The position numbers were made by a program, and so were the translations under genes. Below are positions 693-57,644 of a DNA stretch of 64,000 nucleotides, in pieces (positions within the stretch are counted from its first letter, which is position 1; every line of letters begins with the position of its first letter). A model generated the notes under the pieces. That model was not told the DNA's origin, ran no database searches, and saw only the letters and a program-made list of their open reading frames with translations. The stretch comes from Candidatus Limnocylindria bacterium. Lineage in GTDB: Bacteria > Eisenbacteria > RBG-16-71-46. The stretch lies in the NCBI GenBank assembly GCA_035632955.1, contig DASQFU010000048.1, positions 3,164 through 67,163 of the forward strand. The letters run 5' to 3'.

Positions 693-725
693 GAGCCCTC
701 GCGCCGGCTAATTCCCGCGGGCCGG

Positions 726-1544: not shown

Positions 1545-2345
1545 ATGGCGACCATCACGCAGCACGCTCCCGGCACCTTCTGCTGGCCGGAGCTCTCGAC
1601 GTCGGATCAGGCGGCGGCGCGCACGTTCTACACCTCGCTGTTCGGCTGGACCGTCCAGGAGACCCCGATCGGCGAGGGCGAGACGTACACGATGTTGTTC
1701 AGGGCCGATCAGCCAGTGGGCGCGCTGTACCGGGCGAGTGCGGAGGAGCGCGCTCAGGGTGTGCCGCCGCACTGGAACTCCTACGTCGCGGTCGCGAGCG
1801 CGGACGAGGCGGCCGCCAAGGCGAAGCAGCTCGGCGGCAAGATCCTGGTCGAGCCGTTCGACGTCATGGAGCATGGCCGGATGGCAATCATCCAGGATCC
1901 TACCGGCGCGGCTTTCTGCGTCTGGCAGGCGAAGCAGCACATCGGCGCCGGCGTTCTGAACGAGACCGGCTCGCTGTGCTGGACCGAGCTGATGACGACC
2001 GACACCGACAGGGCTGGACAGTTCTATGCGTCGCTGTTCGGATGGAAGGGCGCGTCCATGCCGATCGCAGGCGGACCTTCGGCAGGCTCGCCTTACACCG
2101 TCTTCAACCGGGGCGAACAGATGGCGGGAGGCATGATGCCGATTCCCAAGCAGTCCCCCGGCACGCCATCGAACTGGCTGATCTACTATCAGGTCGAGAA
2201 CTGTGACAAGAGCGCAGCGCGCGCTGCCGAGCTGGGAGCCAAGGTCCAGGTTCCGCCGACCGACATTCCGAACGTCGGGCGTTTCTCCGTCCTTCAGGAT
2301 CCGCAAGGGGCGTACTTCGGAATCCTCGCCTATCCGTCTGCCTGA
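1545..2345 (+). CDS. VOC family protein (glyoxalase/bleomycin-resistance fold), two-domain
   Basis: ORF-track ORF 1395..2345 trimmed to the ATG at 1545 with GGAGGG RBS. Duplicated module 'FGW..ETPIGEG..Y..F / FGWKGASMPI' is typical of tandem VOC domains. Confidence 0.85.
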   Translation: MATITQHAPGTFCWPELSTSDQAAARTFYTSLFGWTVQETPIGEGETYTMLFRADQPVGALYRASAEERAQGVPPHWNSYVAVASADEAAAKAKQLGGKILVEPFDVMEHGRMAIIQDPTGAAFCVWQAKQHIGAGVLNETGSLCWTELMTTDTDRAGQFYASLFGWKGASMPIAGGPSAGSPYTVFNRGEQMAGGMMPIPKQSPGTPSNWLIYYQVENCDKSAARAAELGAKVQVPPTDIPNVGRFSVLQDPQGAYFGILAYPSA

Positions 2346-2472: not shown

Positions 2473-3531
2473 GTGAGCGCGCTCGGCAAGCTCTCGCCCG
2501 CCGCGTTCGAGCGGTTGATCGCGCCGCATCTCGGCGCTGCCCGACCCGAGGTGTTGGTCGGGCCCAAGCCGGGCATGGACAGCGCGATCGTCCGCATCGG
2601 CGCCGGCCGCGTGCTCGCGATCACGACCGACCCGCTCTCGATCGTCCCGGCACTCGGGCTCGAGGATTCCGCGCGCCTCGCGTGTCATCTGCTCGCCTCC
2701 GACTTGTGGACGAGCGGCATTCCGCCGGCCTACGCGAGCGTGTGCCTGAACCTTCCGCCGGCGTTGCCGGACGCCGAGCTGGAACGCTACGTGAAGGCGC
2801 TCGGCGCCGAATGGCAGCGACTCGGCGTCGCGGTCATCGCCGGGCATACCGGCCGCTACCCTGGCGGTGACTCCTCGATCGTCGGCGCCGCGACCTTGAT
2901 CGGCGTCGGTGACGAAGGCCGCCACGTCACGTCCGCAATGGCCGCTCCCGGCGATCGCGTGATCGTCACCAAGGGATGCGCGATCGAGGCCACGGCGATC
3001 GCGGCGCGGATGTTCCCGGGGCGGCTCGCCCAGTGGCTGGACGAAGCGGGGCTCGAGCGTGCGCGGGCACTGCTCGCGCGTGTGAGCGTCGTCGATGACT
3101 GCCGGATACTGCTGGCGCTCGGCGTTCGCGATCGCGGCGTGACCGGGCTGCACGACGCGACCGAAAGCGGCGTGCTCGGCGGGCTGCTCGAGCTGGCGCG
3201 CGCCTCGGGACACGACGTGAGAGTGGAGCGCGCGAAGGTTCCGCTCGCACCGGAAGCCGAGGCGGCGTGCCAGGCGTTCGGCGGGATCGACCCTTACTGG
3301 ACACTGAGCGAGGGCACCCTGATCGCAACCGTCCGCCCTGAGCGCAGCGCCGAGGCACTCGCGGCACTCGCCGAAGCCGGAATCGTGGCGGCCGAGGTGG
3401 GAGACGTGATGCGCGGCGCAGGGGTCTTGTGGCTGACCGAGCCCGACGGGCGTGTGACGCCGATTCGGGAGCCGGAGCCGGACCCCTACTGGGACGCTTA
3501 CGCGCGCGCGCTGCGGGAAGGCTGGAGCTAG
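2473..3531 (+). CDS. AIR synthase-related (PurM-superfamily, HypE/ThiL-like) protein
   Basis: GTG start. N-domain motif 'GMDSAIVRIG' and C-domain 'GLHDATESGVLGGL' are typical of PurM-like ATP-dependent enzymes. Confidence 0.75.
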   Translation: MSALGKLSPAAFERLIAPHLGAARPEVLVGPKPGMDSAIVRIGAGRVLAITTDPLSIVPALGLEDSARLACHLLASDLWTSGIPPAYASVCLNLPPALPDAELERYVKALGAEWQRLGVAVIAGHTGRYPGGDSSIVGAATLIGVGDEGRHVTSAMAAPGDRVIVTKGCAIEATAIAARMFPGRLAQWLDEAGLERARALLARVSVVDDCRILLALGVRDRGVTGLHDATESGVLGGLLELARASGHDVRVERAKVPLAPEAEAACQAFGGIDPYWTLSEGTLIATVRPERSAEALAALAEAGIVAAEVGDVMRGAGVLWLTEPDGRVTPIREPEPDPYWDAYARALREGWS

Positions 3532-5816
3532 AAGTAGTACGGAGTTTTCCGCGCCCACTCGCTGTCCGGGTAGCGGCGATGCAGGAGCTGGAACGCCGCG
3601 CGCGACTGGGCGGTCGTGCGCGAATCGTGGCAGCCGTAGCGGGTCGATTGCACCGCGAGATGGAGCGCGCGCGGCACCCTCGGGTCATCGCGATGGTCGC
3701 GCCCCCACGCCACGACCTGCCGGCACAGGAAGCTCGGACCCGATTCCACGTCCGCCAACCGCGTCACTTCCTCCCGCGCCTGTTCCCGCTCGCCTTCCGT
3801 GAGCCAGGCGGTATCCGAGAGCGAATCGTGCAGCACGGCGTAGCGGCGGATCCCGAACACGTCGTGCGCCGAGAGGCCAGCGTCCTCGTCATTCGACGAA
3901 GCGGCGCACCACCAGTTGTCCCGGTACGGATCCATGCGGTCGATCGAAACCAGCCGCCCAACCCCCTCGGCGACCGAAGGCTTGGCGCCGGGGAAGTCGA
4001 GCATCAGAAGCGCCGCCTCGAACCGCCGGGCGGCCGGTTCCGCGACCGAGCGGTAGCGCTCGAGCCGCGAACGCGTCTGCGGCAGGAGCGTCTCGACCGC
4101 GGGCGCGAGAGCGAGCGCCGCTTCGTCCCGATCGAGCAGGACCGCCCGCACCCAAGCGGCCAGGGCGACTTCGGCGCGCAAGTGCCTCGGCCAGCCCTCG
4201 CGGGTCGCGATCCTGGTCAGCGTCGCCAACGATAGGTTGCGGTTGAGCACCGTTGCCGCATCGGCGTCCAAGAGCTCCGGGCCCGCAAAAGCGCGCTCGA
4301 TGCCATGGAGGCTCGTGTCCGGAGTCGCGTCGTTCGTCGCCCAACCGGCGCCGACCCCCGCGGGCAAGCGCGGCGCGAAGTCGAGAAACTCCTCCAGGCT
4401 CCGGACCAGCTTCAGGCGCTGGGCGAGCAGCAGATTGAGCCCCGAGCTCGACCACGGCGAGCGAGCAGCAGCGAGCGACATCGAACGATCAGCGGTCAGC
4501 AACCGATCCAGAACGGCGCGCGCCTCGTCACGCTGCCCACGCTCGGCCAGCAGGCGCACGCGATGGAACTGGAGCGTCGCGAACGCCGGCGACCTCTCCT
4601 TCACGTTCGCGCACGCCCGGAGCACCGCCTCGGCGTCGTCCTCGATGCCGCGAACGTGACGCGCGGCGGCCACGAGCCACGGCAACGAGCGGCTGTTTCG
4701 CCACCGCTCGAGCGCATGCCGCCGAGCACCGGGCCCGCTGCCCTGGAACGTCAGCATCCAATCCGCGAGATCGTAGTCCCGACTCTTGGCCGCCAGCGAT
4801 TCCGCAAGGGACGGGCGCACGCGATCGAGGAGCAGCGTGAAATCGACGACGTCCTGGCGGAATGATTCCGCCGGGCGCGCAGCCGTCAGCCCCCGGCACA
4901 ACTCGCGCAAGCGCTCGGCCGGGCGCAGGCGAAAACCGATGAACCCGATCAGGCGCCGGGTGTCGGCATGGCTCTCGCGCAGGGCGGGATCGGCGAGCAC
5001 CCGCTGTGCCTGGGCCTCGGCGGCGGCCAGCGCTGTGGTGTCGATGCCGCGCCACGCCGGAATCAGCGTGCCCTTACGCGTGAGCGCGCGTGCCACGAGA
5101 TAGGGCGCGAGCCGGCGCCACGGCGAGCCCTGGTCGCGCGCGATCTCGGAGAACCGGCGCGCGGCCTCGTCGAGCTCCCCGAGATAGAAGTGCGCAGCGG
5201 CGATCTGGTAGGCGCGATCCGCTTGCAGCAGCGCCGGCGCTCCGGCCGGGGCGGGCTCGGGCATCAAGCCTGGAGCCGAGCATTTTGCGAGCACGCGATC
5301 CTGGGCCCGGAGCCAATCCGCGAACCAAAGACTCTCGGGACCGAAGCGCTGGGCGCGGTCGGTCATGGTCGCGGCCGCGACCACCAGCGCGTGTCGCTGG
5401 CAGTTCGTGTAGTCGAAGGACTGGCCGCTCTCGGCGTCCGATACCGATCGGTAGACACCGAACCCGACCGCCGAATCGGCGCCCGGATACTGGCGCCGCA
5501 GCTCGACCCATTGCCAGTAGCTCGCTTCTTCGCTCATGGCGTTCGCGTTCGAGTCGGGAAGGCCGAGCGCCGCCCGCTGCGCCGAACGATCGAGACTCAG
5601 CCCGCGCAGACGCCGATAGGCGATCGCGAGGTAGCGTTGGCGGTAGGTCGGATGCAGCACGCCCAGCCGGCCGGCCGCGAACGCTTCAGGCGCGTCCGGT
5701 TGCTGCTCGAGCGTGAAGACCGCGTACGGAAGATCGGGACCGCAGCCGTCGGTCGCATGAGGGATGACCGTGCCCGCGAAGGCGAGTGCCAGTGCGAAGA
5801 CCGCGCGCACGTTCAC
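3528..5816 (-). CDS. large hypothetical secreted protein
   Basis: ORF 3528..6086 trimmed to the GTG at 5816, which overlaps the stop of the upstream gene (GTGA coupling) and precedes signal peptide VNVRAVFALALAFAGTVIPHA. No recognisable catalytic motif. Confidence 0.55.
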   Translation of the reverse strand: MNVRAVFALALAFAGTVIPHATDGCGPDLPYAVFTLEQQPDAPEAFAAGRLGVLHPTYRQRYLAIAYRRLRGLSLDRSAQRAALGLPDSNANAMSEEASYWQWVELRRQYPGADSAVGFGVYRSVSDAESGQSFDYTNCQRHALVVAAATMTDRAQRFGPESLWFADWLRAQDRVLAKCSAPGLMPEPAPAGAPALLQADRAYQIAAAHFYLGELDEAARRFSEIARDQGSPWRRLAPYLVARALTRKGTLIPAWRGIDTTALAAAEAQAQRVLADPALRESHADTRRLIGFIGFRLRPAERLRELCRGLTAARPAESFRQDVVDFTLLLDRVRPSLAESLAAKSRDYDLADWMLTFQGSGPGARRHALERWRNSRSLPWLVAAARHVRGIEDDAEAVLRACANVKERSPAFATLQFHRVRLLAERGQRDEARAVLDRLLTADRSMSLAAARSPWSSSGLNLLLAQRLKLVRSLEEFLDFAPRLPAGVGAGWATNDATPDTSLHGIERAFAGPELLDADAATVLNRNLSLATLTRIATREGWPRHLRAEVALAAWVRAVLLDRDEAALALAPAVETLLPQTRSRLERYRSVAEPAARRFEAALLMLDFPGAKPSVAEGVGRLVSIDRMDPYRDNWWCAASSNDEDAGLSAHDVFGIRRYAVLHDSLSDTAWLTEGEREQAREEVTRLADVESGPSFLCRQVVAWGRDHRDDPRVPRALHLAVQSTRYGCHDSRTTAQSRAAFQLLHRRYPDSEWARKTPYYF

Positions 5817-6811: not shown

Positions 6812-7393
6812 CTAGAACTTGATGGCCAAACCCAACGAAGTGCTCCAGTAGTCAGGATCGAACTCGTTTGGAGGGAGCTGGCTGGTTTCCTGTTCCAGGA
6901 AGATGTAGCGGCCGTTCAGATCGAGCCCGACCATCGGTGCAAGCGGGACGGCGAAGCCGCCGCCCAGGTGCACGCCGAACTTCTGCGAGGTCTCGTCCGA
7001 GAACGGGAGCGAATCGTCGTAGTCGAGCGTGGTGTGGTACCAGCCGACGCCGCCGCCCGCATAGAGCACGGGCACCGGAGCCAGCCACAACGATGCGGTC
7101 ACCGGCCACATCCGCACTTTGAGGTTGTCGTTGAACCTCGATTCGGAGCGGTAGGCGGCGCCGATCTCGGTCTTGAGGAACGGAAGCAGATTGCCGCGGA
7201 ACGCGAGGCCGCCGAAAACCTTGGCCTCGTCGCCGTCGCTGTCCACGGTCTTCGTGATTCCGATCGAAGGGATGATCTCGCCCGCGCGAACCACCTGCGC
7301 GGCCAGCAACAGCATGCCCATGAGCAGCGCGGCACCGATCAAGGCTCGGTCCAGCGCACGCATTGAGGGAACGCCTGTCAAAGTCGTCTTCAC
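6812..7393 (-). CDS. outer-membrane beta-barrel (OmpA-like/porin family) protein
   Basis: GTG start with AGGAGG RBS. Signal peptide present. Alternating amphipathic strands. C-terminal Phe (..GLAIKF). Confidence 0.7.
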   Translation of the reverse strand: MKTTLTGVPSMRALDRALIGAALLMGMLLLAAQVVRAGEIIPSIGITKTVDSDGDEAKVFGGLAFRGNLLPFLKTEIGAAYRSESRFNDNLKVRMWPVTASLWLAPVPVLYAGGGVGWYHTTLDYDDSLPFSDETSQKFGVHLGGGFAVPLAPMVGLDLNGRYIFLEQETSQLPPNEFDPDYWSTSLGLAIKF

Positions 7394-14150: not shown

Positions 14151-15971
14151 CTAGGGCGCCAGCACGTCCTCGGGCGGACGGCGGAGCGCGCGGGCGATCG
14201 GAATCAGGCTGTACTCGGGATCGGCCCAGCGCGAGCGGTCGTAGAAGAACGCGAGCCGCAGATCGGGACTCTTCGCGAGCGCGGGATCGGATCGCAGCCG
14301 CGCCTCGAACTCTCGCGCCAGGGCGGGGTCGTCGCGCAGCATCTGCCGCGCGATCGGCTCCATCACGTAGGGCTCGGCGTATTCCTTCTTCTGCAGCACG
14401 GTGTCGAAGGCGTTCCAATGGAACAAACCGTCCGGCGCCTGGGACTCGAACAAGTGCACCGCGACCAGCGCCGAGCGCTGATCGAGCGGCACCCAAAGGT
14501 CGCCGGGGCGGAACGTCCGCTGCCGCCGCACCAACTCGACCTGGATCACGCTGTCGGGAACATGCCCCTCGAACAGCGGCCGCGTCTTCCACGACACGAT
14601 CCGCTCCTGCTCGACGGTGTCGCTCCAGGCGCGCGTAAAACGTCGCGTGCGCACGCTGTGGATCGCGAGCCGCTCGGTCGCCGCCGTCCACTCCTGCGGC
14701 ACAAAGTATCCCACCGGCTGGCGCACCGTGATCTCGGGCTCGAGCTCCCGGAACAGCGGAATCAGAGTGTCCCACGGTGCAGTGCCGTAGCGCGGAACCG
14801 TCGTGCCGAGCACAGCGCTGAACTCGTAGCGCGTCGCCACGCCCCGGTACGGGAACGGCTCGCTGCGGCTCGTCAGGCGCGACGTCAGATCCACGGTCCG
14901 GAGCGCCTGGTCTGCGTTCCGGCCGCGCGCGACGACGTCGCTCTCGGCCTCGGACACCGCCGATCTCAATGCCGCCGGCCGGGCGTTGATCTCTTCCAGT
15001 AGCGCGACCAGGAGGTCGTAGGTGGCGCGCACGCGGCTCGCGTACGGCTTCAGCACGTGCGTCTCGACCAGCACGCTCGCCCGGCATTGCAGCGACGTGT
15101 AGCCGCTCGAAAACCGCGGGGACGTGCCCTCGAACTTGATCCCGGAGCGCGGATCGTTGGTGGTCACGAAGTCGAGATAGGGCGCCGGCAGATGCCCGAT
15201 CGCCGCCAACCGCGACACGACGCGTCCTTCGAACGCATCGACCAGCCAGCGCGTCACGGGATCGGGCGAGGTCGGCCCGTGGTTGAAGCTGTAGGTCACG
15301 TCGTGGCGATAGTCGGCGCCGTTGGTGGTGTGGTTGTCGACCAGCAGATGTGGCCACCAGCGCGTGTAGACGCGCGACAGCATGGCGCGCATCTCCGGAG
15401 CCTCGGCCTTGACGTAGTCGCGATTGAGATTGAGCCCGATCGGCGTCGCCCGCCACCCCATCTCTTCGGGCCCGTTCTGGTTGATGCGGTTGTAGCGGCT
15501 GCGGCGCTCGTGCGCGTCGACCGAGAAGATCGGCAGCACCAGCAGCACGACCTCGTCGAGCAGCGCTTCGCGCGTGCGCGTCACCACCATGTCGCGCATC
15601 AGCGCGAGCGACGCATCCTTGCCCTCGATCTCGCCGGAATGAATCCCGTTCTGGATCAGGACGATCGGCTTGCCGAGCGCCAGCGCCTGCTCGGGCGTGA
15701 ACGCGCGGTCCTTGGACAGGATGACGAGCGGCAGATCGCGTCCCTGGCCACTCCGGCCGTAGCTCTCGACCTTGACCCATGTCGAGGCGGCCTCGAGCGC
15801 GCGGCAGAAACGCATGGTTTCGTCGTAGTCCGCGGTCTGCCGGTAGGCCGAACGCTCCGCGCGCGTCTTCCAGTAGGCGGGAACCGCGAGCGTGTCGGGT
15901 GCGGGTTGGGCGGCGGCGGGCGCCGCGAGGAGAGTCAGCGCCGCGAGTCGGCGGAGCGTGCGCGAGAGCAT
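14151..15971 (-). CDS. M14 family zinc carboxypeptidase, secreted
   Basis: Signal peptide. 'GIHSGE' HxxE zinc-binding motif. Size and domain order consistent with peptidase M14. Confidence 0.8.
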   Translation of the reverse strand: MLSRTLRRLAALTLLAAPAAAQPAPDTLAVPAYWKTRAERSAYRQTADYDETMRFCRALEAASTWVKVESYGRSGQGRDLPLVILSKDRAFTPEQALALGKPIVLIQNGIHSGEIEGKDASLALMRDMVVTRTREALLDEVVLLVLPIFSVDAHERRSRYNRINQNGPEEMGWRATPIGLNLNRDYVKAEAPEMRAMLSRVYTRWWPHLLVDNHTTNGADYRHDVTYSFNHGPTSPDPVTRWLVDAFEGRVVSRLAAIGHLPAPYLDFVTTNDPRSGIKFEGTSPRFSSGYTSLQCRASVLVETHVLKPYASRVRATYDLLVALLEEINARPAALRSAVSEAESDVVARGRNADQALRTVDLTSRLTSRSEPFPYRGVATRYEFSAVLGTTVPRYGTAPWDTLIPLFRELEPEITVRQPVGYFVPQEWTAATERLAIHSVRTRRFTRAWSDTVEQERIVSWKTRPLFEGHVPDSVIQVELVRRQRTFRPGDLWVPLDQRSALVAVHLFESQAPDGLFHWNAFDTVLQKKEYAEPYVMEPIARQMLRDDPALAREFEARLRSDPALAKSPDLRLAFFYDRSRWADPEYSLIPIARALRRPPEDVLAP

Positions 15972-16029: not shown

Positions 16030-18603
16030 TCAACGAATCACGCTCACGCGCGCGGTCAGCGAGCGCTCGCCCTGAACGAGCCGCACGACGTACACCCCCG
16101 GCTGGAGCGGGCTGCCGTCGTTCAGATTGACGAGATGCGAGCCGGCGCCGAGCGTGCCGACGGCGCGCTCGCGCACCCGGCGCCCGGCGATGTCCAGCAG
16201 CTCGAGCGTGGCGGGCTCGGGGCCGGCGAGCGAGAACCCGATCCACAGATCACGATCGGTCGGGTTCGGTCGCGCGCCCTGGAGCGCGAAGCGCGCCGTG
16301 CTCGGGACCTCGATCCACGCCTCTCCGCTCAGCACCTCGCCTTGACCGTCGTCGATGCCGAGACGATAGCCGTAGCGGGAGCCCGGCGCGACGTCACGAT
16401 CCGCGTACTCGACGAGTCCCGCACCGTTGGGGGCGGGCGAGGCGATGACGTTCCAATCGCTGGACTCCGTGCGCCGGTACACCGCCGTCGTGACCGGCCG
16501 ATCCGCCGCCACGTGCCAGACGAGCTGCACGCGGTCGCTCTCGGCGCTCACGTGCGCGAGCGACACCTGGATCGCGGTGAACGCCAGGTCGACGCGCCCC
16601 ATGAACACGTCCACGTCGCTGTTGCGGCCGTCGGACCACGCCACGTAAACCGCGTCGTTGTTCGCGAACAAGCAGATGTAGTCGCCCTGATTCGGGGCGA
16701 TGTTGCTGACGATGTTGGTCCAGTCGGTGCGCACGTCGGTCACCGGCGAGCCCGGCAGCCAGGAGACGCCGCCGTCTTCCGAGCGGGTCAGGAACGTGTG
16801 CGAACCGGAGCCGCAAATGGAGGCCGGCGCGTCGCGCCAGTCGTACCACGCGAGGTAGGGCTTGCCGGCGCTCGACACGCCGACATCGGGCAACCAGTCG
16901 TCGCGGTTGGCCGGGCTGTCGCTGGCGCGTACCGGCGTCGTCCACGACGTGCCGGTGGTGGACGTGGTCGTGAACACGTCGCGATGGTCGCGCGACCGCT
17001 CCGTGACCGCGCCGTTGAACCCGGTATCGATGGTGTAGGCGCCGGTGCCGGCGGGGCCGCCGCTCGAAGGGGTCAAGGATGCGACGCGGAGGAAATAGTC
17101 GCCTGTGGTCGGCAGCGTGAACACGACCAGGGCCTGGCCGTTCGCTTCCGAATCCGAGAACGCGAGCCGGCTGTTCTGGTCGGTGCAGAAGATGCGGAAC
17201 GAGCAGATGAGGTCGGCGTCGCTCTCGCTCAGGGCGCAGATGATCGTCTGCCCCGCCGCGCCACTGAACCGGTAGTAGTCGAAGTCGTTGATGTTGCCGA
17301 TCTGGCCGCTGATGTTCTGGCTGGCCGTGAACAGATCCGCAGTACCCGGCAGGTCGTTGCTCTCCGACTCGAGGACGGTCGTCGAGGTGCCGAGGTTGTC
17401 GTTGTAGAAGTTGATCGATTCGTTCCAGGTCAGATAGACTCGGCCCCGGAACGGACCGCTGCTGCGGTCCACGGCGAGGCTCGGGAACGTGATCCCCATG
17501 CCGCGGTTGAAACCCGGGGCGCCGGTGCCGAAGTTGGCGAAGTACGAAGCCGCCGTCACCTGCGAGCCGAACGTGGCCCCCGCGGTCGTCGACTTCCGGA
17601 CGCGGAAGAAGTCGACGTCAATCGGTCCGATCGCCGCCCAGACGACATAGAGCTCGCCGTCGGGTCCCATCGCCGGGCGCGATGCCTGGACCAGCCCGGC
17701 GTCTCCCGCCGACGAGATCGTGGTCGCCGTGCTCCAGGCCGCAACGTTGGTCGGGTCGGTCTGGATCTGGAAGTCGATCTGGTTCGCGCTCGGCGTAAAG
17801 TTCGTGTACGACACGTAGAGATTACCGCTCGCCGAGTCGGCGACCACCCAGACCTTGTCGAGGAAGTTGGAGCTGTTGTTCACCGAACGGACCAGCTTCG
17901 GCGTCCCCCAGGTGAGCACGCCGCCGACGAACGTGCCGCGCACGACACCGACGCCGTTGGTGGAGCCCGACGGGTTGCAGAGCGCGGCAAAGTAGAAGGT
18001 GCCGGTTTTCTCGTTCACGGTCAGGACCGGATCGCTGGTCCACTCACCGATGCCACCCGTGACCGGCGGCGCGCCGCCGTCGATCCACGTCTGCCCGCCG
18101 TCGTTGGAGTAGGCATAGCCCTGGGTGCTGAGTCCGGTGTGGAAGCCCTGGCCGTCGTTCCAGGCCGCGATCGCCTGAACGCCCAACGCGGCGATCGACA
18201 CTTCCGCCTGCCCGGCGTCGGGATTGTCGCCGGCGCGGTTGTTGAGCTGGCGGTTCGGCGCCAGATTCGCCTGTAGGCGCTCCGGAGCCGGAGCGTCGAA
18301 GCGGTGGTCGCGCGCAAGCTGCGCGGCGCCCTGGCGCCCGCCCGGCTCGCGCATGTCGGCCGGCACGCGGCGGCGCGCTCCGGAACCGGCTGCCGGCGGC
18401 TTCGTTTTCGCGAGCTTTCGGGCCCGAGCGAGCCGATGCCGCGCCCCTTCCATCAGCTTCGCTCGCTGCGTCTGTTTGAACTGGCGCGCGCGCTGCTCGA
18501 CGCTCATCTCGCCGGCCGCGGCGCGCAGCGGCGTCTCGATCAGCGCCGCCGCGAGCACGGCGATGGCGAGCGACGTCCAGCGCGCTCGGAATCGGAGAGT
18601 CAT
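16030..18603 (-). CDS. BNR/Asp-box repeat protein (sialidase-like beta-propeller) with PPC domain and FlgD-Ig-like C-terminal domain
   Basis: ATG at 18603 with AGGAAG RBS. Signal peptide. Multiple S-x-D-G-G-x-[TS]-W Asp-box repeats. A 'SNDLPGTADL...DFDYYRF' pre-peptidase C-terminal-like segment. C-terminal ~85 aa resemble FlgD/T9SS-type sorting domains. Confidence 0.75.
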   Translation of the reverse strand: MTLRFRARWTSLAIAVLAAALIETPLRAAAGEMSVEQRARQFKQTQRAKLMEGARHRLARARKLAKTKPPAAGSGARRRVPADMREPGGRQGAAQLARDHRFDAPAPERLQANLAPNRQLNNRAGDNPDAGQAEVSIAALGVQAIAAWNDGQGFHTGLSTQGYAYSNDGGQTWIDGGAPPVTGGIGEWTSDPVLTVNEKTGTFYFAALCNPSGSTNGVGVVRGTFVGGVLTWGTPKLVRSVNNSSNFLDKVWVVADSASGNLYVSYTNFTPSANQIDFQIQTDPTNVAAWSTATTISSAGDAGLVQASRPAMGPDGELYVVWAAIGPIDVDFFRVRKSTTAGATFGSQVTAASYFANFGTGAPGFNRGMGITFPSLAVDRSSGPFRGRVYLTWNESINFYNDNLGTSTTVLESESNDLPGTADLFTASQNISGQIGNINDFDYYRFSGAAGQTIICALSESDADLICSFRIFCTDQNSRLAFSDSEANGQALVVFTLPTTGDYFLRVASLTPSSGGPAGTGAYTIDTGFNGAVTERSRDHRDVFTTTSTTGTSWTTPVRASDSPANRDDWLPDVGVSSAGKPYLAWYDWRDAPASICGSGSHTFLTRSEDGGVSWLPGSPVTDVRTDWTNIVSNIAPNQGDYICLFANNDAVYVAWSDGRNSDVDVFMGRVDLAFTAIQVSLAHVSAESDRVQLVWHVAADRPVTTAVYRRTESSDWNVIASPAPNGAGLVEYADRDVAPGSRYGYRLGIDDGQGEVLSGEAWIEVPSTARFALQGARPNPTDRDLWIGFSLAGPEPATLELLDIAGRRVRERAVGTLGAGSHLVNLNDGSPLQPGVYVVRLVQGERSLTARVSVIR

Positions 18604-18658
18604 CGGGTCTTCCTTTCGAAGCAGGGCGAGGGAGCGACGCGAATCGCACCCGTTCATA

Positions 18659-19477
18659 TCAAGGGCCGGCCGCGGTTGGGGAAGCGCTGGCGAGCGCGGG
18701 ACCGAACTCCAGAATGAAATGTGAGAGGAGACCGGGCCAGAGCGAGCCTCCGGCCAAGTCTCGCATCAGTCCCCACCACAAGCCAAGCGGCAAGGAGATA
18801 CCGACCACGTGGAACAGCCAGGAAGCCGCCGGCACGTCCACGCCGGGCAGGAAGCGCAGCGAGCGCATGGCCGTGAACGCGAGTGCGGGCACCACCACTC
18901 TGGCCCAGCGATTCGTCCGCGGGTCGAGCGAGCCCTGGAGATATCCGCGGAACAGCAGCTCCTCGGGCAAGGCCGAGCCCACGATCGCGAACACCAGCGC
19001 GAACACAAGACTGTCGGGGGTCACGGTCACGATCCCGGCGGTCACCTCCGCGTAGCGGCGCGCGGAGTAGAAGAACGCGATGCCGACCCCGAGCGCCAGC
19101 GTGAGCGCGAAGCGAGTCGGCCGCCCGCCGCGGAATCCGTAGTCGCGCCAGGCATGGCCCTCGGCGATCGCCATCACCCACACGAACAATCCCAGCGTCA
19201 CGAACATCACATCCCCGAGTGCGAGCAGCCAGGGACTGTGCTCGCGCGCGAGCAGCGCGGGAGCGACCACACGGGCGAAGCATCCGGAGCACAAGGCGTA
19301 CACCAGTGCATAGAACAGCGCCCGGCGCGTGCCGTGCGCGGAACGGAGCGGCGGGCTTTGCCGGCGGGCCGTCAGGATCGCGAGCCCGGCCACGAGCAGC
19401 AGAAAGCCCGCGACCAGAAATCCGAGCAACGGCTGAGCGTCGGGTGGGGACAGCCTGGCGCCGGCTAGGAACGCCAA
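18659..19477 (-). CDS. CPBP family intramembrane metalloprotease (CAAX protease-like)
   Basis: Polytopic membrane protein with 'EELLFRGYL' and 'FxxxH' motifs. Confidence 0.8.
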   Translation of the reverse strand: MAFLAGARLSPPDAQPLLGFLVAGFLLLVAGLAILTARRQSPPLRSAHGTRRALFYALVYALCSGCFARVVAPALLAREHSPWLLALGDVMFVTLGLFVWVMAIAEGHAWRDYGFRGGRPTRFALTLALGVGIAFFYSARRYAEVTAGIVTVTPDSLVFALVFAIVGSALPEELLFRGYLQGSLDPRTNRWARVVVPALAFTAMRSLRFLPGVDVPAASWLFHVVGISLPLGLWWGLMRDLAGGSLWPGLLSHFILEFGPALASASPTAAGP

Positions 19478-28565: not shown

Positions 28566-29333
28566 TTAACGGTAGAGCTGCTTGATCGTGCCCCACGTCG
28601 ACGACTGCACCGCCGTCGGCGGGTTGCCGAACTCGCCGTTCGGCTGAGCGCTGTAGCCGGCCGGCAGGATGCAGAGCCCGTTGCCCGAGCCGTTCGGGCA
28701 CCAGGTTCCGAACAGATTACCGAGCCCGGTTCCCTGCACGCGCACGAAGTACGTGCCGGCCGGCGGGCCCGTGAACTGGAAGTCGGCGTCGAACTCGTGC
28801 GTGTATTGATTCGGCGGTCCGCCCGGAAGCTCCCTAACCGTGGTGACGAAGTTCGAGAGCGTGCCGGAGAGGATCACGGTGCCGTCGGCGAACCGGGCGG
28901 GCACCTGTGCGTTGGGCGGGTTCGGCGCCAGCGTCGCCAGCGTCGGCGCGTCCGGAGTCGTGTCCTCGTAGATGATGAAGCTGCCGCCGCTGTAGCTCGT
29001 CACGTACTTGGTTCCGGTGACGAAATACGGCGTGGTGACGGTGCCGTTCGAAACCAGGCCCGCGAACACCAGCGTGTATTCCTTGCTGGGATCCTGAGCG
29101 TCCAGATCCTGGAACGGCTGGCAGAACAGAGTGATCTTGCCGACGACCGTCAGCTGACTTCCGATAACCGAGTTGAAGGTCGCAGGGTTGTAGTTGGTCT
29201 CGTAGGCAAAGGTGTTGGTGTCGAACTCGATCATCGGAGCGCCGGTTTGTCCACACTGGGCATGCGCCGAGGACGCAAAGGCGCCGGTGGCCAGTAGCCC
29301 CAGCGTCACCGCCATCCCGAGCTTGCTCTTCAT
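28566..29333 (-). CDS. secreted hypothetical protein, paralog A (C-terminal ...STWGTIKQLYR)
   Basis: Signal peptide MKSKLGMAVTLGLLATGAFASSAHA. Shares architecture and C-terminal tail with the adjacent gene. Confidence 0.65.
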   Translation of the reverse strand: MKSKLGMAVTLGLLATGAFASSAHAQCGQTGAPMIEFDTNTFAYETNYNPATFNSVIGSQLTVVGKITLFCQPFQDLDAQDPSKEYTLVFAGLVSNGTVTTPYFVTGTKYVTSYSGGSFIIYEDTTPDAPTLATLAPNPPNAQVPARFADGTVILSGTLSNFVTTVRELPGGPPNQYTHEFDADFQFTGPPAGTYFVRVQGTGLGNLFGTWCPNGSGNGLCILPAGYSAQPNGEFGNPPTAVQSSTWGTIKQLYR

Positions 29334-29397
29334 TTGGGAACCTCCATCGGATTGCATCACGGTCACGAAGGACCGTGACGGAGCTGTCGGTTGAAGA

Positions 29398-30090
29398 CTA
29401 GCGGTACAGGGACTTGATGGCGCCCCAGGTCCGTTGCGTCGCAGACGTCGGTCCCGGAACGAGACAGTTGCCTTCGACCTGATTGTCGTAGCCAGCCGGA
29501 ACGGACGTGTTGTCGTTCTGCGCTCCGAGAATCCAGCCCGAGCGTTGCGCGGGCGGGACGTAGAGCGCCAGATCGCTGCCTTCGTCGAGCGTCATCGCGC
29601 CCGACCAAGCTCCGCGACCCGTGGCAAAATTGTACGTGAGCACGAACTGGTCGAGATCGCCACCCAATGCAGGAGGACCGGGATCGATGAACGTCGACGG
29701 CGCCGTGGCGTTCGGCGGATTCGTGCCGTAGAGCGCCGGCGTGTAGGGGCGCGCGAACGGATCTTCGAAGTAGCGGACTCGACCGTTGTCGTTGAACGTC
29801 ACGACCATGTCGGACCCGTCCGTGTCGCGCGTCGCAACCGTCAGATCGAACAGGTAGTAGGTGTACTCGTTCTGTGAGAAGTCGTAGAACGGATCGAGCA
29901 GCGGACCGAAGCTGGTAATGAACCCGACCGACTTGTAGCCGTCGCCGACGGCGAGGTACAAGCCGCCATCGCCTGGATTTTCGTAGTCGTATCCAGTGAA
30001 GCTCAACAGAGTCTGCTGGGGTTGCGCGTACACGGGGACCGTGCACACGAGCGCTGCGGTGAAGAGGAGTAGCAAAGTCTTACGGATCAT
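29398..30090 (-). CDS. secreted hypothetical protein, paralog B (C-terminal ...RTWGAIKSLYR)
   Basis: Signal peptide MIRKTLLLLFTAALVCTVPVYA. Tandem paralog of 28566..29333. Confidence 0.65.
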   Translation of the reverse strand: MIRKTLLLLFTAALVCTVPVYAQPQQTLLSFTGYDYENPGDGGLYLAVGDGYKSVGFITSFGPLLDPFYDFSQNEYTYYLFDLTVATRDTDGSDMVVTFNDNGRVRYFEDPFARPYTPALYGTNPPNATAPSTFIDPGPPALGGDLDQFVLTYNFATGRGAWSGAMTLDEGSDLALYVPPAQRSGWILGAQNDNTSVPAGYDNQVEGNCLVPGPTSATQRTWGAIKSLYR

Positions 30091-30355: not shown

Positions 30356-31960
30356 TCAGGGCCATTCCAGCGTCGTGATCCGACGTGCAGCGACCCTCAA
30401 GCTGGTCAATGAGGCGAGACCCGCGACGGCGAGCGGGACCCACGCGAGAAAGCCCCCCGGAAGCTGCCACTCAAGGGCTTCGGCGATCGCCGGCAGCCCG
30501 ATCCAAAGTCCCGCCTGCACCGCGATCAGCCCGGTCGCCACCAGCCGTCCGGCAAGCGTCAGCATCGCCCGAGGATTCGTCCATCCCCAGTCCGCGAAAA
30601 GAGTTCCCGTGAGGATGCCGAGCGAGAGCGAAAGGCCCAGGGCGACCGTGACTCCCGGGATGATCGCGAGCCACTCGGACGCCGCCATCGGCAGCGACAG
30701 CATGAGGCTGCCGGCGGCCAGGGCGACCAGGGGACCGGCGAGCGCCGCGGAGCTCAACAGCTTGGCGATCACCCAGCGCGAAGGGGGCAGAGGGGCGAGC
30801 CGGGTCCATGCGAACCCGAGCTTCTCGAACGGGATCGAGCGGGCTGCGATCTCGTATCCCAGCGCGACCGCCAGCAGCGTCAGCATCGATCGGACGAGCA
30901 CCGGGGGCGGGACGTCGAGCAAGGGCGCCCCCACCAGCGGCAGCAGCGTCCACAGCACCGCGGCGGCCAGCAAGTCGCTGAGCACCGTCCAATCGCGCGC
31001 GAAGAGTCGTAGATCGCGCCGCGCCAGCTCGAGCACCGCGTAGCGCGGTTTCGCCGACGCCGTGGCGCGCCGCTTTGGCTTTCCCCGCTTCGCGGCGCCC
31101 GACCCGATTTGTGCGAGCGCGGTCTCCAGATCACGTGCGGCAACCGCGAGCGCGACGCCGACGGCAATCAGCGCGCCCGCCGCCAGTCGTGCCGTGCCGG
31201 CGAGCGCACCCGCGACGTCACCGCCGTGCGCGGCGACGAGGCTACGCGCGAGCCAATGCGCCGGCGACAGGGCATCGAGGCCGAACGCATCGCCGAAGAC
31301 GCGCCCGCCCCGCAGCGCCTCCCACGCTCCCGGATCTGCGGCCTTCGGCAGCAGGAACGAGTTGGCGAGCCAGAGCGCCGTGAGCATCAAGGTCGAGAGC
31401 AACCCGAGCGCTTCCCGGGCACGCCGTGCCGGCACGCGGCGCAGCACCATCAAGGCGACCGCGAGCCCGAGTGCGAGCGGGATCAGCCACATCGCCAGCA
31501 GCTGAAACGGCGCCAGTGCCCACGCCCAGACCGGGAGCGGCGCCGCCGCGGCGAACGCGACGACCGCCGGAATCAGCAGGATCACGAGCACCGGCGACGT
31601 GCGGGGCAACGCGTCCACCAGCTTCAACGCCAGGAGCCCGGCCGGGCTGAGCGGAGCGCGCCGCAGCAGGTCGAGATCGGAATCGAGCAGGACGGCAGAG
31701 ACGAGATAGTGGAGGTCGAAGACGATCAACGCGACCAGCGCCGCGGTCAGGATCGCGGCCAGCAGGCTCGCGGCCGATTCGACGCCGCCGACTCCGGCGG
31801 CGAAGGTCGCGAACGTGGCTTGAAACGCGGTCATGAGCACCGCCGCGACCATGGCCGCCAGCACCAGGCCCAGCCACGGACGCGGCCCACGGCGCGAGCG
31901 CCCGGACAGCGTGTTGCGCAGCAGCCGCCAGCGGCCGAGCGCGACGCCCGCGACGTTCAC
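30356..31960 (-). CDS. ABC transporter permease (large polytopic, ABC-2-like)
   Basis: More than 10 predicted TM segments. ATGA-coupled to the upstream ATPase gene. Confidence 0.7.
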   Translation of the reverse strand: MNVAGVALGRWRLLRNTLSGRSRRGPRPWLGLVLAAMVAAVLMTAFQATFATFAAGVGGVESAASLLAAILTAALVALIVFDLHYLVSAVLLDSDLDLLRRAPLSPAGLLALKLVDALPRTSPVLVILLIPAVVAFAAAAPLPVWAWALAPFQLLAMWLIPLALGLAVALMVLRRVPARRAREALGLLSTLMLTALWLANSFLLPKAADPGAWEALRGGRVFGDAFGLDALSPAHWLARSLVAAHGGDVAGALAGTARLAAGALIAVGVALAVAARDLETALAQIGSGAAKRGKPKRRATASAKPRYAVLELARRDLRLFARDWTVLSDLLAAAVLWTLLPLVGAPLLDVPPPVLVRSMLTLLAVALGYEIAARSIPFEKLGFAWTRLAPLPPSRWVIAKLLSSAALAGPLVALAAGSLMLSLPMAASEWLAIIPGVTVALGLSLSLGILTGTLFADWGWTNPRAMLTLAGRLVATGLIAVQAGLWIGLPAIAEALEWQLPGGFLAWVPLAVAGLASLTSLRVAARRITTLEWP

Positions 31961-32709
31961 GCGCCAGGGTCCGGCGCGCCGCGCGTCAGCTCGAGGAACA
32001 CGTCTTCCAGGGTCGCCTCCGCGCGGGCGCCGCGCAGCTCGTCGATGCGGCCCTCCGCGACCAGCCGGCCGTGATGGAGGATCGCCACGCGGTCGCAGAG
32101 CCGTTCGGCGACCTCGAGCAGATGGGTGGAGACGAGAACGCCGAAACCGCGCGGCATCCGCTCGCGCAACAGATCTTTGAACGCGCGCACGCCGAGCGGG
32201 TCGAGGCCGATCAAAGGCTCGTCGAGCATCAGCAGCGGTGGGTCGTGAATCAGCGCCGCGGCGAGCGAGATCTTCTGCCGCATGCCGAGCGAATAGGTCT
32301 CGATCAGCTCGCCGGCGACCGATGCGATGCCAAGGCGCTCGAGCAGCGCCTCCGAGCGCGGGCCCGCGAGACCTCCCGGCACGTCGTAGAGCGCGGCAAC
32401 GAACTCGAGGAACTCGCTGCCGGTGAGGCGCTCGTAGAGGAACGGCCGGTCCGGAACGAAGCCCAACGCTGCGCGGGCGCGGCGTCCGGCGCGCTGCAGG
32501 GAATGGCCGGCGATCTCGACGTCGCCGCCGTGAGGTCGCAGCAGCCCGGCGCTCACGCGCAGGGTCGTCGTCTTGCCCGCGCCGTTCGGGCCGAGAAAGC
32601 CCAGGATCTCCCCGGGGCGAACCTCGAGGCTCAGGCCATCGACCGCCACGAGCTCTCCATAGCGCCGGGTGAGCTCGACGATCCGGAGCGGCGGCGTCCG
32701 ATCATTCAT
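31957..32709 (-). CDS. ABC transporter ATP-binding protein
   Basis: Walker A 'GPNGAGKTT'. Signature 'LSLGMRQK'. Walker B 'LLMLDEP'. Confidence 0.9.
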   Translation of the reverse strand: MNDRTPPLRIVELTRRYGELVAVDGLSLEVRPGEILGFLGPNGAGKTTTLRVSAGLLRPHGGDVEIAGHSLQRAGRRARAALGFVPDRPFLYERLTGSEFLEFVAALYDVPGGLAGPRSEALLERLGIASVAGELIETYSLGMRQKISLAAALIHDPPLLMLDEPLIGLDPLGVRAFKDLLRERMPRGFGVLVSTHLLEVAERLCDRVAILHHGRLVAEGRIDELRGARAEATLEDVFLELTRGAPDPGA

Positions 32710-51867: not shown

Positions 51868-52779
51868 CTAACGATAGCGAGTCTTGACCGTTCCAAAGCT
51901 CGTCTCTTCGACGGCGGTCGGGCCGCAGGTCGCCCCGAGGTTGCCGTTGTTGTACTGGTCGAGCTTGTTCTTGTTGGTCTGAACCGAGCTCGAGCTCAGA
52001 AAACCCGAGCCGATCGGCGGCACCACGAGACTGCCGATCTGCGCGTCGGCGGCCGTCACGTAGCTGGCGATCTGCGCCGGGCTGCCGCCGTTGGCGAGGT
52101 TGAGCTTGGTCGCGATCAGCTGCTGGGCCAGCATTACGAGCCCGTTGCCGTGCGCCGGCTGGCCGAGAATCGCCAGGAGCTGCGTCTGGTTGTATGTCAC
52201 GGTTCCCAACGTCAGCGACGCGACCGGCCACTGCGAGGGATGGTTCTTCCAGTAACCCTTCGAGTGAATGCAGCTCTCTTTGTTGATCGTGGCACCGCCG
52301 GTGGTCTCGGAGAACAGGCTGGCCTCGCCGCCGGCATCACCCAAGGTGCGGACGCGGAACACGTACTCGGTGCTCGGCTCGAGCTCGACGTTGTAGTCGG
52401 TGAAGATGCCTTCCTCGCCGAACATGTCGCCGATCTCGGCCGACACCACACCGTGTGGGCCCACGAGGAAGCTGCCGTTGTCGGGCAGCGGGTTGTAGGT
52501 CGGCGTGCCCGTAAGCTCGCAGATGTAGGCCGGGTCATAGGGTCCGCCCGAAACCGGCCAACCGGTCGCGAGGTCATAGGCTTCCTGCGTCGTCCACTCG
52601 ATCAGGAATCCCGCCGGCGCGCCGCTTTGGCCGGCCTGGATCTGGAGCGTGATGGACCTCGCGCTCACTTCGGCGATGGAGAGAGTCGGAACGTCGTACG
52701 AGGTCTGTGCGTGCGCGGGCACACCGCCGATTGAAACCAGAAGAGCGGCTGCAACCGCAAAGCTCGGTAGCTTGATCAT
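51868..52779 (-). CDS. secreted hypothetical protein (C-terminal ...TSFGTVKTRYR)
   Basis: Signal peptide MIKLPSFAVAAALLVSIGGVPAHA. C-terminal tail matches the motif of the 28566..30090 paralogs. Confidence 0.65.
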   Translation of the reverse strand: MIKLPSFAVAAALLVSIGGVPAHAQTSYDVPTLSIAEVSARSITLQIQAGQSGAPAGFLIEWTTQEAYDLATGWPVSGGPYDPAYICELTGTPTYNPLPDNGSFLVGPHGVVSAEIGDMFGEEGIFTDYNVELEPSTEYVFRVRTLGDAGGEASLFSETTGGATINKESCIHSKGYWKNHPSQWPVASLTLGTVTYNQTQLLAILGQPAHGNGLVMLAQQLIATKLNLANGGSPAQIASYVTAADAQIGSLVVPPIGSGFLSSSSVQTNKNKLDQYNNGNLGATCGPTAVEETSFGTVKTRYR

Positions 52780-56279: not shown

Positions 56280-57644
56280 ATGAACCGCGCGGAACGAATG
56301 CATGCCACCCGCTTCGTTCTGCGGCTCGCAGTGGTTGGGCTGCTGGCGGCCGCCTGGAACGCCGGGGCCTCTCCGGCGGCGACGGCTCAACCACTTTCCG
56401 CATGGCGCGCGGCCGAGACCATCGAATGGCCAGCGGAAACTGAGCTCGTGCCATTCGAGAACCTCGAAGGGATGATCCTACTCAGGGCCTCGCTGCGCGG
56501 CGCCACCGGTGCAGACACCGCCGGATTGTTCGTCTTGGATACGGGCGCCGGCTATCTGGCGCTCGATCTGCCACTGGCGCGCGCTCTGGGAGTGTCCGAT
56601 AGCGACGGAACTCCGGCGCTGGTCGACCTGGCGAACCGTCCCCTGCCGAGCTTCACTCTGGGGAAGCTCAGCATGACCGACGTCGAACCACTCCTGACGA
56701 TTGATAGTCAAGTGATTCGCCGAGCCACCGACAAGAACGTGCTCGGCCTGCTGGGCCAGCAACCCCTCAGCGATCGCGCGGTATGGATCGACTATCGCGC
56801 GGGATTGACGGCGATGATTCCCGTCGAAGCTCCAGGTCGTTCCGACGACGGCGACGAGCCTGAGAACCCGGTGCAGCGGTCGCGCGGCGCGCTCGCGAAG
56901 GTGATCTCGGCGAGAGCGGCGCCGGTCGTCTTTCGAATCGTCGGCGACGGCAAAGCGCTCGTGCAGGTGCGCGTCTCCAGCCCTCGGCCGCCTCGGTTCT
57001 CGCGCTGGCTGTCGCTGATCGTCGATACCGGCGCCTCGAAGACCGTGCTTTTCGCCGAGACGCTGGACCGGCGCATCCACGCGCGCTGGCCGACCTTGCG
57101 TGGGCTCACGGCACCTACCCTGATCGGCGCCGCGGAAGCCTATCTGGCACGGATACCCGCGTTGGACGTTCGGGCCGAGGCGGCGAACGTGCGAGTCGAT
57201 GGCATCGACGTCGCCGTGATCGAAAGCGGCTTGTCGCAGATGCTCTCGCGCGTTGCCGAAGAGCAGATCCACGGCCTCCTCGGCTATTCGTTTCTCAAAC
57301 GCTTCCGGGTCGTGTTGGATTACCCCAATCGCGTGCTGTGGCTGGATCCGATACCCGACTACGTGGACGACCGGCCACTCGAGTACTCGCACGTCGGCAT
57401 CCAGCTCGAGCGCCGGGAAGGGCGGGTCGTCGTCGCCGCGGTCGCGCGCGGATCGCCCGCCGCCCGCGCCGGCATCGGCCGCGACGACGAGCTCGTGGCG
57501 ATCGACGGCAAGACTGCAAAGGACATCAATCTGAGAAGCCTAGCCGGCATGATCGAGGGCGAGCCGGGATCGGCGATCACGCTCACGGTCCGGCGAGATG
57601 CCGTTGCGCGCACCCACCGGCTCCGCCGCCGCCAGCTTCTCTAA
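56280..57644 (+). CDS. secreted tandem retropepsin-like aspartic protease with C-terminal PDZ domain
   Basis: Signal peptide. Two 'xxDTGA[GS]' catalytic motifs (LDTGAG, VDTGAS). C-terminal 'VAAVARGSPAARAGIGRDDELVAIDG' PDZ-like segment. Confidence 0.7.
   Translation: MNRAERMHATRFVLRLAVVGLLAAAWNAGASPAATAQPLSAWRAAETIEWPAETELVPFENLEGMILLRASLRGATGADTAGLFVLDTGAGYLALDLPLARALGVSDSDGTPALVDLANRPLPSFTLGKLSMTDVEPLLTIDSQVIRRATDKNVLGLLGQQPLSDRAVWIDYRAGLTAMIPVEAPGRSDDGDEPENPVQRSRGALAKVISARAAPVVFRIVGDGKALVQVRVSSPRPPRFSRWLSLIVDTGASKTVLFAETLDRRIHARWPTLRGLTAPTLIGAAEAYLARIPALDVRAEAANVRVDGIDVAVIESGLSQMLSRVAEEQIHGLLGYSFLKRFRVVLDYPNRVLWLDPIPDYVDDRPLEYSHVGIQLERREGRVVVAAVARGSPAARAGIGRDDELVAIDGKTAKDINLRSLAGMIEGEPGSAITLTVRRDAVARTHRLRRRQLL

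Follow-up and report, generated by a model that had tools for sequence, protein, structure and literature searches.

The window, a stretch of 64,000 nucleotides of contig DASQFU010000048.1 (assembly GCA_035632955.1), encodes three exported proteins, P1, P2 and P3, that share a short tail at the extreme C-terminus. This tail is called here the "tag", and the part of the protein that carries it is called the passenger. P2 lies directly upstream of P1 on the same strand (Table 1). The original prediction, made from the letters of the window, had described three signal-peptide proteins with near-identical tails. The three open reading frames (ORFs) are present where it placed them, on the minus strand, and their products end in STWGTIKQLYR (P1), RTWGAIKSLYR (P2) and TSFGTVKTRYR (P3). 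The N-terminus of each protein has a basic residue, a hydrophobic stretch and an AxA-type cleavage site. In the signal-peptide region of P1, residues A25 and C27 are nearly invariant among 56 homologs, and residues 6-24 are predicted by AlphaFold2 (AF2) to form a helix. The start of P1 has been moved from GTG at 29366 to ATG at 29333, giving a protein of 255 residues that matches its orthologs and the NCBI call.

The pattern [WFY]G.[ILVM][KR]..[YF][RK]$ is found at only three of the 1381 six-frame ORF ends of the window, those of P1, P2 and P3, compared to about 0.0004 expected from the amino-acid composition. The three tails are encoded by different codons, with differences at synonymous sites, showing that the conservation is at the level of the protein and is not due to a DNA repeat. 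The proteins had also been described as otherwise divergent. This is true of P3, which is unrelated to P1 and P2 apart from the tail, but P1 is a true paralog of P2 (32% identity, E-value 8e-11). The tandem P2-P1 pair occurs also in loci L021, L032, L040, L059 and L103, and the last residues of all 57 P1 homologs, except for one frameshifted entry, are [ST]WGx[IVLM][KQ]xxY[RKH].

The P3 family (875 matches) has a looser tail, [ST]WGx[VLIM]KxxY[RKH], sometimes with one extra residue. The tail of P3 itself deviates in having F for W, V for I and R for L, and that of its relative P0091 is STWGTVKTRYR. As judged from these sequences, the degenerate P3 tail is a normal variant within its own family. 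Tail-less homologs of P3 end in GPGHCED, two residues past the conserved Cys, and this locates the start of the tag module at that point. The P3 gene is situated between mnmG and rsmG, on the strand opposite to them, within the yidC-jag-mnmE-mnmG-rsmG-parA-parB cluster. This site is not conserved in the homologs (L113, L122-L124), two of which are arranged in tandem in L113.

The conserved unit is longer than the ten residues initially described. It consists of about 18 residues with the consensus P-[TV]-[PA]-[VT]-E-x-x-[ST]-W-G-x-[IV]-K-x-L-Y-R-COOH, as in the peptide PTPVEESTWGAIKALYR, and includes a P-[TVS]-[PA]-[VT]-E linker at positions -17 to -13, numbered from the C-terminal residue. 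In a right-aligned set of 107 non-redundant tails, the residues conserved outside those fixed by the search are P(-17), T/V/S(-16), P/A(-15), V/T(-14) and E(-13), and position -4 is nearly always occupied by a small residue. The conservation ends at about -20, and nothing upstream of it is conserved. Of 104 non-redundant tails, 61 have a Cys between -30 and -12, usually at one of the positions from -18 to -21.

The terminal residues were further defined by a tail profile, whose matches are free of the DNA-pattern constraint of the genome scan given below, although the profile itself was made from tails. In 115 of the 146 best matches the motif reaches exactly to the C-terminus, and in 20 it is followed by 1-5 further residues. 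Among the 115 matches ending at the C-terminus, W at -9 and K at -5 are found in all, G at -8 in 114, and Y at -2 and R at -1 in 110 each. Position -6 is I or V, position -3 is L or sometimes M, and positions -10 and -11 are T or S. Among the 606 ORFs of the 119 loci listed from the genome scan there are 113 full motifs, all of them no more than three residues from the C-terminus and none internal.

Neither a transmembrane segment nor a folded domain is present in the tag, which AF2 predicts to be a linker followed by a terminal helix of 8-11 residues. Its mean hydrophobicity is about zero and its helical hydrophobic moment is 0.47-0.59 (0.22 for P3), which is not significantly above that of shuffled sequences. 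The absence of conservation upstream of about -20, the tail-less P3 homologs and the predicted helix beyond a linker together suggest that the tag is not part of the passenger fold. No model in Pfam (2025 copy) or NCBIfam (June 2026) covers the tag, and full-text literature searches on the motif and related topics returned no description of it, in agreement with the earlier statement that the tail could not be matched to a named signal. With the whole of P1-P3 at E<=1, these two collections gave nothing relevant, only weak matches to BamE and fn3 within the passenger parts. The fold of P1 had no match in the PDB by Foldseek.

The tag is widespread. DNA encoding [ST]WGxIKxLYR and a stop was searched for in one genome per species (185,579 species, 596 Gb). 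This gave at least 129 matches in at least 119 loci, compared to about 6.5 matches expected from uniform base composition; per-locus figures here refer to the matches listed. The stop position of the pattern also permitted TGG, which occurred in none of the 129 listed matches, all of them true ORF ends with a real stop. The 129 DNA 33-mers are all distinct and vary at synonymous positions, and the GC content of the listed loci ranges from 33 to 74%. The tail profile, run against 1.84 billion representatives of clusters formed at 50% identity, matched at least 380 clusters at E<=0.001, a lower bound since the profile is short. A profile of the 40-residue tail yielded only 16 candidates, all gene fragments. 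The motif is thus not confined to the three proteins, which was the point of the proteome-wide search proposed in the original prediction.

Eisenbacteria form the largest group of named hosts among the matches listed. The others are Krumholzibacteriota, Latescibacterota, Gemmatimonadota, Zixibacteria, Cloacimonadota and Coatesbacteria, apart from two hosts that are probably mislabelled. Every one of these hosts is a metagenome-assembled genome (MAG), none being labelled Bacteroidota and none cultured, and there are several tag matches per MAG. The pattern was found in 2 of 2.9 million viral contigs. In the viral contig IMGVR_UViG_3300043406_000127 (locus L121, 214..1712), an ORF of 116 residues ends in KRTTWGSIKAFYR and has no obvious signal peptide at its called start. 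It adjoins genes that resemble those for a single-stranded DNA-binding (SSB) protein and a YqaJ-type exonuclease, judged by sequence alone with no family search.

The passengers bear little resemblance to one another. When the last 16 residues were removed from 99 tag proteins, these fell into 54 clusters without detectable similarity, representing at least 54 unrelated families. Their folds are likewise unrelated: a beta-barrel, an FN3 domain with a helical domain, a beta-helix, an NHL propeller and a cupredoxin. A signal-peptide-like N-terminus was recognized by a hydrophobicity heuristic in 92 of the 98 full-length tag proteins of the listed loci, as expected of exported proteins. About 5% of the tag proteins are lipoproteins. 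The domains of the 98 proteins are typical of surface proteins, and those in Pfam include Beta_helix, NosD, Chlamydia PMP repeats, LTD, NHL, cupredoxin, CHRD and carbohydrate-binding modules (CBMs). In NCBIfam they match, among others, choice-of-anchor W, V and J, DNRLRE, an extracellular nuclease (ExeM/NucH), two PEP-CTERM families (ScyF and PepA) and one MYXO-CTERM family. The 25 NCBIfam families shown for these proteins are all passenger-protein families, with no sorting-signal model among them. Passengers of the choice-of-anchor, DNRLRE, ScyF and PepA types carry PEP-CTERM, MYXO-CTERM or type IX secretion system (T9SS) signals in other lineages.

The tag appears from its sequence to act like a sorting signal, yet it lacks the defining features of each known family with which it was compared. 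The C-terminal domain (CTD) of T9SS cargo (TIGR04183/PF18962, with a FlgD_ig-like form in candidate phyla of the Fibrobacterota-Chlorobiota-Bacteroidota (FCB) group) resembles the tag in its C-terminal position on Sec-exported proteins and in having no transmembrane segment. Like the tag, it is found on many unrelated surface-type passengers per genome in FCB-group bacteria, and the two are interchangeable on homologous passengers. However, the T9SS CTD folds into a beta-sandwich of about 70-100 residues, whereas the tag is a linear motif of about 18 residues, and the CTD sequence …GVYFxRL…KxVLLK is unrelated to …WGxIKxLYR. Searches of P1-P3 with TIGR04183, PF18962 and PF13860 gave no match at E<=1. 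The same searches detected the domain in neighbours of tag genes and in the T9SS-type protein of the window, which in addition has a PPC domain, with FlgD_ig and Por_Secre_tail below the Pfam threshold.

The interchange is clearest in locus L073, where three adjacent paralogs have a common CBM-like module. One of them ends in PSATEPTTWGGIKQLYR. In its aligned neighbour (2555..3970) a T9SS-type CTD, beginning with …QNLPNPFN, is found at the point equivalent to the tag, and the third paralog (151..1749) also has a T9SS-type CTD end. Furthermore, among 53 complete C-termini of a passenger family from metagenomes, 36 end in the tag and 7 in KMxLLK, and the four KMxLLK members that were tested are all above the TIGR04183 cutoff (26-45 bits). 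Members L142, L166 and L179 of the same family end in …R(L)xxxxPE[ST]PY[GR]R(F), which is neither the tag nor a T9SS CTD and may be another C-terminal motif. In 26 of the 119 listed loci, T9SS-CTD proteins are encoded no more than 8 kb from a tag gene, and the 118 immediate neighbours of tag genes include 14 with FlgD_ig and 6 with Por_Secre_tail. No protein with both a tag and a T9SS CTD was seen among the 606 ORFs of the listed loci.

The tripartite signals, namely LPXTG/sortase, PEP-CTERM/exosortase, GlyGly-CTERM/rhombosortase, MYXO-CTERM/myxosortase and PGF-CTERM/archaeosortase, require a transmembrane helix and a cluster of Arg residues (bioRxiv 10.1101/2023.06.07.544157). The tag shares with them a short C-terminal module that follows a Pro/Thr-rich linker on many unrelated exported proteins, as well as some of the same passenger families, and the P-x-E of its linker loosely recalls the PEP of PEP-CTERM. 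The 54 passenger clusters show that the tag has the tripartite trait of being common to many unrelated exported proteins, which is a functional resemblance and not a sign of membership. In contrast to the tripartite signals, the linker of the tag is followed by 10 residues that include an invariant Lys and no hydrophobic stretch, and there is a single terminal Arg instead of a basic cluster. Since the tag has no membrane-spanning segment, canonical processing by an intramembrane sortase-type enzyme is not possible. The NCBIfam sorting-signal models, including WGxxGxxG-CTERM (NF038039), did not match P1-P3 at E<=1. In the 8-kb locus L042, the genes for two tag proteins and a T9SS-CTD protein stand side by side with one for a true PEP-CTERM protein, showing that the tag is a separate type of signal that coexists with the others. 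One of these tag proteins has two extra residues (…WGAIKALYRQP). The tag would be a functional alternative to the T9SS CTD and to PEP-CTERM-type signals, which are in use in the same genomes.

Other short C-terminal signals are only partly similar. The beta-signal of outer membrane proteins (OMPs) is likewise confined to roughly the last 10 residues of the protein, where it is strictly positioned and has an aromatic residue close to the end. It belongs, however, to transmembrane beta-barrels and ends in an aromatic residue, as in the two OMPs of the window (Table 1), whereas the tag ends in R (110 of 115) and its passengers include Pfam families of typically soluble domains (beta-helix, NHL and cupredoxin) and the FN3 fold of P3. 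The peptidoglycan-linking tail of Lpp has a C-terminal Lys that is crosslinked through its epsilon-amine to meso-diaminopimelate (mDAP); the tag has a terminal Arg, with Lys in only 2 of 115. In eukaryotes, the peroxisomal targeting signal 1 (PTS1, -SKL) and KDEL are very short C-terminal motifs on unrelated cargo that are read by a receptor, either soluble or in a membrane. They differ from the tag in domain of life, compartment and sequence, but offer an analogy for a signal that would be defined by its position and read by a receptor.

Table 1. Positions of the features discussed, in the window and in locus L042
Source	Feature	Position	Strand	Description
Window	P1	28566..29333	-	Exported protein of 255 residues: signal peptide, closed beta-barrel domain, C-terminal tag
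Window	P1 signal peptide	29259..29333	-	MKSKLGMAVTLGLLATGAFASSAHA, followed by QC; cleavage site inferred from AxA rule
Window	P1 tag module	28569..28622	-	PPTAVQSSTWGTIKQLYR; linker and STWGTIKQLYR
Window	P2	29398..30090	-	Exported paralog of P1, 230 residues
Window	P2 signal peptide	30025..30090	-	MIRKTLLLLFTAALVCTVPVYA, followed by QP; cleavage site inferred
Window	P2 tag module	29401..29454	-	GPTSATQRTWGAIKSLYR; end RTWGAIKSLYR
Window	P3	51868..52779	-	Exported protein of 303 residues: signal peptide, FN3 domain, helical domain, tag
Window	P3 signal peptide	52708..52779	-	MIKLPSFAVAAALLVSIGGVPAHA, followed by QT; cleavage site inferred
Window	P3 tag module	51871..51924	-	GPTAVEETSFGTVKTRYR; relaxed variant, begins directly after conserved Cys285; end TSFGTVKTRYR
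Window	T9SS-type protein	16030..18657	-	875 residues, T9SS type A C-terminal sorting domain, ends in GVYVVRLVQGERSLTARVSVIR; TIGR04183 34.8 bits, cutoff 23
Window	Rce1-like CPBP protease	18659..19477	-	
Window	M14 zinc carboxypeptidase	14151..15971	-	
Window	Secreted aspartyl protease	56280..57644	+	C-terminal PDZ domain
Window	ABC transporter	30356..32709		Upstream of P2
Window	OMP_b-brl protein	6812..7393		Ends in AIKF
Window	TonB-dependent receptor	60225..62420		Ends in ARLW
Window	yidC-jag-mnmE-mnmG-rsmG-parA-parB	44768..55772		Gene cluster with P3 between mnmG and rsmG
L042	Tag and T9SS-CTD genes	635..1240, 1406..2242, 4107..4964	+, -, -	
L042	PEP-CTERM protein	3325..3741	-	Contains PVPEPATLLLLSSGLVGIGVILRRR

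The surroundings of the tag genes were searched for partner machinery. Among the 118 immediate neighbours, T9SS-CTD cargo was recurrent, and no recurrent non-cargo family was found beyond generic ones such as tetratricopeptide repeat (TPR) proteins, response regulators and ABC ATPases. In one lineage, the gene for a tag protein of about 400 residues lies directly upstream of that for a PorU-like C25 peptidase of 1138 residues that has a T9SS CTD (L054, 167..4678; L057, 598..5764; L130, L138 and L141). The peptidase scores 87-99 bits against NF033707, far under the cutoff of 420. It was rejected as general machinery, as the adjacency is seen in 4 (3 distinct) of the 18 metagenome loci with enough downstream sequence and in one subclade of that passenger family only. 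The ABC transporter upstream of P2 was also rejected, being syntenic only in L032 and not in L059 or L103.

The Rce1-like CPBP intramembrane protease of the window belongs to the family that includes the myxosortases. It was discarded as well: the tag has no transmembrane segment, only about 59% of the tails have a Cys, and the protease is not among the 25 commonest neighbour families. The gene for the T9SS-type protein is immediately downstream of the CPBP protease gene and nearly abuts it. The window also encodes two enzymes of types that read C-termini, the secreted aspartyl protease with its PDZ domain and the M14 zinc carboxypeptidase, and nothing ties either of them to the tag. The CPBP protease, the aspartyl protease and the carboxypeptidase are possible but unsupported partners of the tag.

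Internal copies of the motif were seen only in a family of lipoproteins with the lipobox …GCGDD and a DUF4440/SnoaL-like domain. In P0197, P0244 and P0273 a 19-residue tag unit is repeated in 2-5 tandem C-terminal copies, and in P0208 and P0216 the unit is situated between two fused domains. The tag unit would, in these proteins, behave as an autonomous binding peptide, and additional copies could add avidity. The arrangement is more suggestive of a peptide for binding or anchoring than of a signal that is cleaved off.

We conclude, with a probability of roughly 0.55, that Sec-exported proteins of the surface type carry in the tag a modular C-terminal signal for sorting or anchoring, which would be read by a conserved putative component of the cell envelope. 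The original prediction of an uncharacterized C-terminal sorting or anchoring signal has stood up in each respect in which it could be tested, namely the spread of the motif, its unrelated exported passengers, the absence of a known model and the exchange with the T9SS CTD. Assuming that this conclusion is correct, the N-terminal signal peptide, recognized here by the heuristic, would carry the protein over the inner membrane. The passenger would then fold, its end often being fixed by the Cys observed about 18-21 residues from the C-terminus, possibly through a disulfide. The exposed tag may form a short N-capped helix, which AF2 predicts with low to moderate confidence. Finally, the putative envelope protein would recognize the tag and either retain the passenger at the envelope or deliver it to the surface. 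The five to seven near-invariant positions across phyla, together with the small residue at -4, favour recognition by a protein over generic binding to lipid. The tag might, moreover, define an architecture that would be the third among prokaryotic C-terminal sorting signals, a linear peptide lacking both a transmembrane anchor and a folded CTD and served by machinery of its own for recognition and translocation or attachment in the outer envelope, but the odds are against this more far-reaching proposal.

Several observations weigh against a sorting or anchoring tag read by an envelope component. No receptor or processing enzyme was identified when the 606 ORFs of the 119 listed loci were clustered and the flanking genes scanned with Pfam, and the neighbourhoods of the P3 homologs consist of unrelated housekeeping genes. 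The original prediction was to be given up if the motif were limited to the three proteins and had no conserved partner machinery; the motif is in fact widely enriched, and no conserved partner machinery was found. Some tails of the P3 family run 1-2 residues longer, and the tandem and internal copies in the lipoproteins indicate that a free C-terminus is not strictly required. The helix itself rests on AF2: in P1 (residues 244-254) it follows a low-confidence linker and has a pLDDT of only about 55, and in P3 (residues 295-302) the pLDDT is 72-84. Lastly, all carriers are uncultured MAGs.

The tails might have no shared function at all, being alike either by chance or because a single ancestral domain ended in this way. 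The likeness of P1 and P2 could by itself be inherited, as they are paralogs. However, the passengers fall into 54 clusters without similarity once the last 16 residues are removed, their folds are unrelated and the conservation stops at about -20. Chance would have given 0.0004 tails in the window, where there are 3, and about 6.5 in the genome scan, where there are at least 129, so that this explanation is effectively excluded. The tag might also have a role as a ligand in proteolysis or quality control, its C-terminus being read by a PDZ-domain protease or a carboxypeptidase for maturation or turnover and not for localization. This would account for the terminal position of the motif and for the conservation of its last residue, and enzymes of both kinds are encoded in the window. 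Neither gene adjoins a tag gene, though, and neither family is among the 25 commonest Pfam families of the 118 neighbours. PDZ ligands normally end in a hydrophobic residue, whereas the tag ends in Arg and also occurs in internal and tandem copies. As it is also implausible that hundreds of surface-type proteins would carry a constitutive degron, we regard this role as very improbable.

Two further explanations accept that the tag directs localization. It could be a self-sufficient anchor, a small cationic amphipathic helix whose face of W, I, L and Y is bordered by K and R and which attaches directly to a membrane leaflet, lipopolysaccharide (LPS) or peptidoglycan without any dedicated machinery. 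The C-terminal amphipathic helix of PBP5 and, conceptually, the C-terminal end of Lpp are analogues. The helix predicted by AF2, in which S/T at -10 and -11 fits an N-cap, agrees with such an anchor, as do the 1-5 residue extensions tolerated in 20 of 146 matches and the failure to find machinery in any of the neighbourhoods searched. The tandem copies with Pro-containing linkers in P0197, P0273 and P0244 resemble binding repeats that add avidity. Nevertheless, the hydrophobicity of about zero, a moment that does not differ significantly from that of shuffles (only 0.22 in P3) and the shortness of a 10-residue helix for stable membrane binding make a self-sufficient anchor unlikely. There is also no terminal Lys for a crosslink of the Lpp type. 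Moreover, no variation across phyla is seen at W, G and K, and very little at Y and R, while the known lipid-binding amphipathic helices are much less strict in sequence. The tag might instead serve the T9SS, as a lineage-specific minimal signal or docking peptide through which cargo enters the system or becomes attached to surface proteins that the T9SS has anchored. Cargo of T9SS type A is encoded in the window and in 26 of the 119 listed tag loci, with 14 FlgD_ig and 6 Por_Secre_tail domains among the 118 neighbours, and the tag hosts among the matches listed are phyla of the FCB group, in which the T9SS occurs. In addition, a tag gene is directly upstream of the PorU-like C25 peptidase in one lineage. 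That adjacency is, however, specific to a subclade (4 (3 distinct) of 18 loci), and the score of the peptidase is 87-99 bits against a cutoff of 420. The known T9SS signals are folded domains of 70-100 residues, no protein was seen with both the tag and a T9SS CTD, and the T9SS-bearing Bacteroidota are missing from the named hosts of the 119 listed loci. A link to the T9SS is on this evidence distinctly unlikely.

The window has a GC content of 68%. The OMPs, the TonB-dependent receptor and the T9SS-type cargo encoded on the contig show that the source organism is a diderm with T9SS-type cargo. The source MAG is named "Candidatus Limnocylindria" (Chloroflexota) in GenBank, and those close relatives of P1 and P3 that bear a name are mostly Candidatus Eisenbacteria. 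The GenBank label is probably an error of binning or taxonomy. Further relatives of P3 are labelled Sulfotelmatobacter or Saccharimonadales, and these labels are equally implausible.

C-terminal sorting signals decide which exported bacterial proteins end on the cell surface. To our knowledge, each new C-terminal signal has so far led to a new enzyme or secretion route, as in the case of sortase, exosortase, rhombosortase, myxosortase and the T9SS. The tag, which is present in 3 of the approximately 50 genes of the window and in at least 380 protein clusters, fits neither of the known architectures. It flags the surface proteome of several uncultured phyla of soil and sediment, provides a handle for finding the machinery by hidden Markov model (HMM) or regular expression, and could improve the annotation of thousands of proteins that are now "hypothetical". 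If the tag does have machinery of its own, it would define a new sorting pathway for hundreds of surface proteins in Eisenbacteria, Krumholzibacteriota, Latescibacterota and their relatives, phyla without cultured members.

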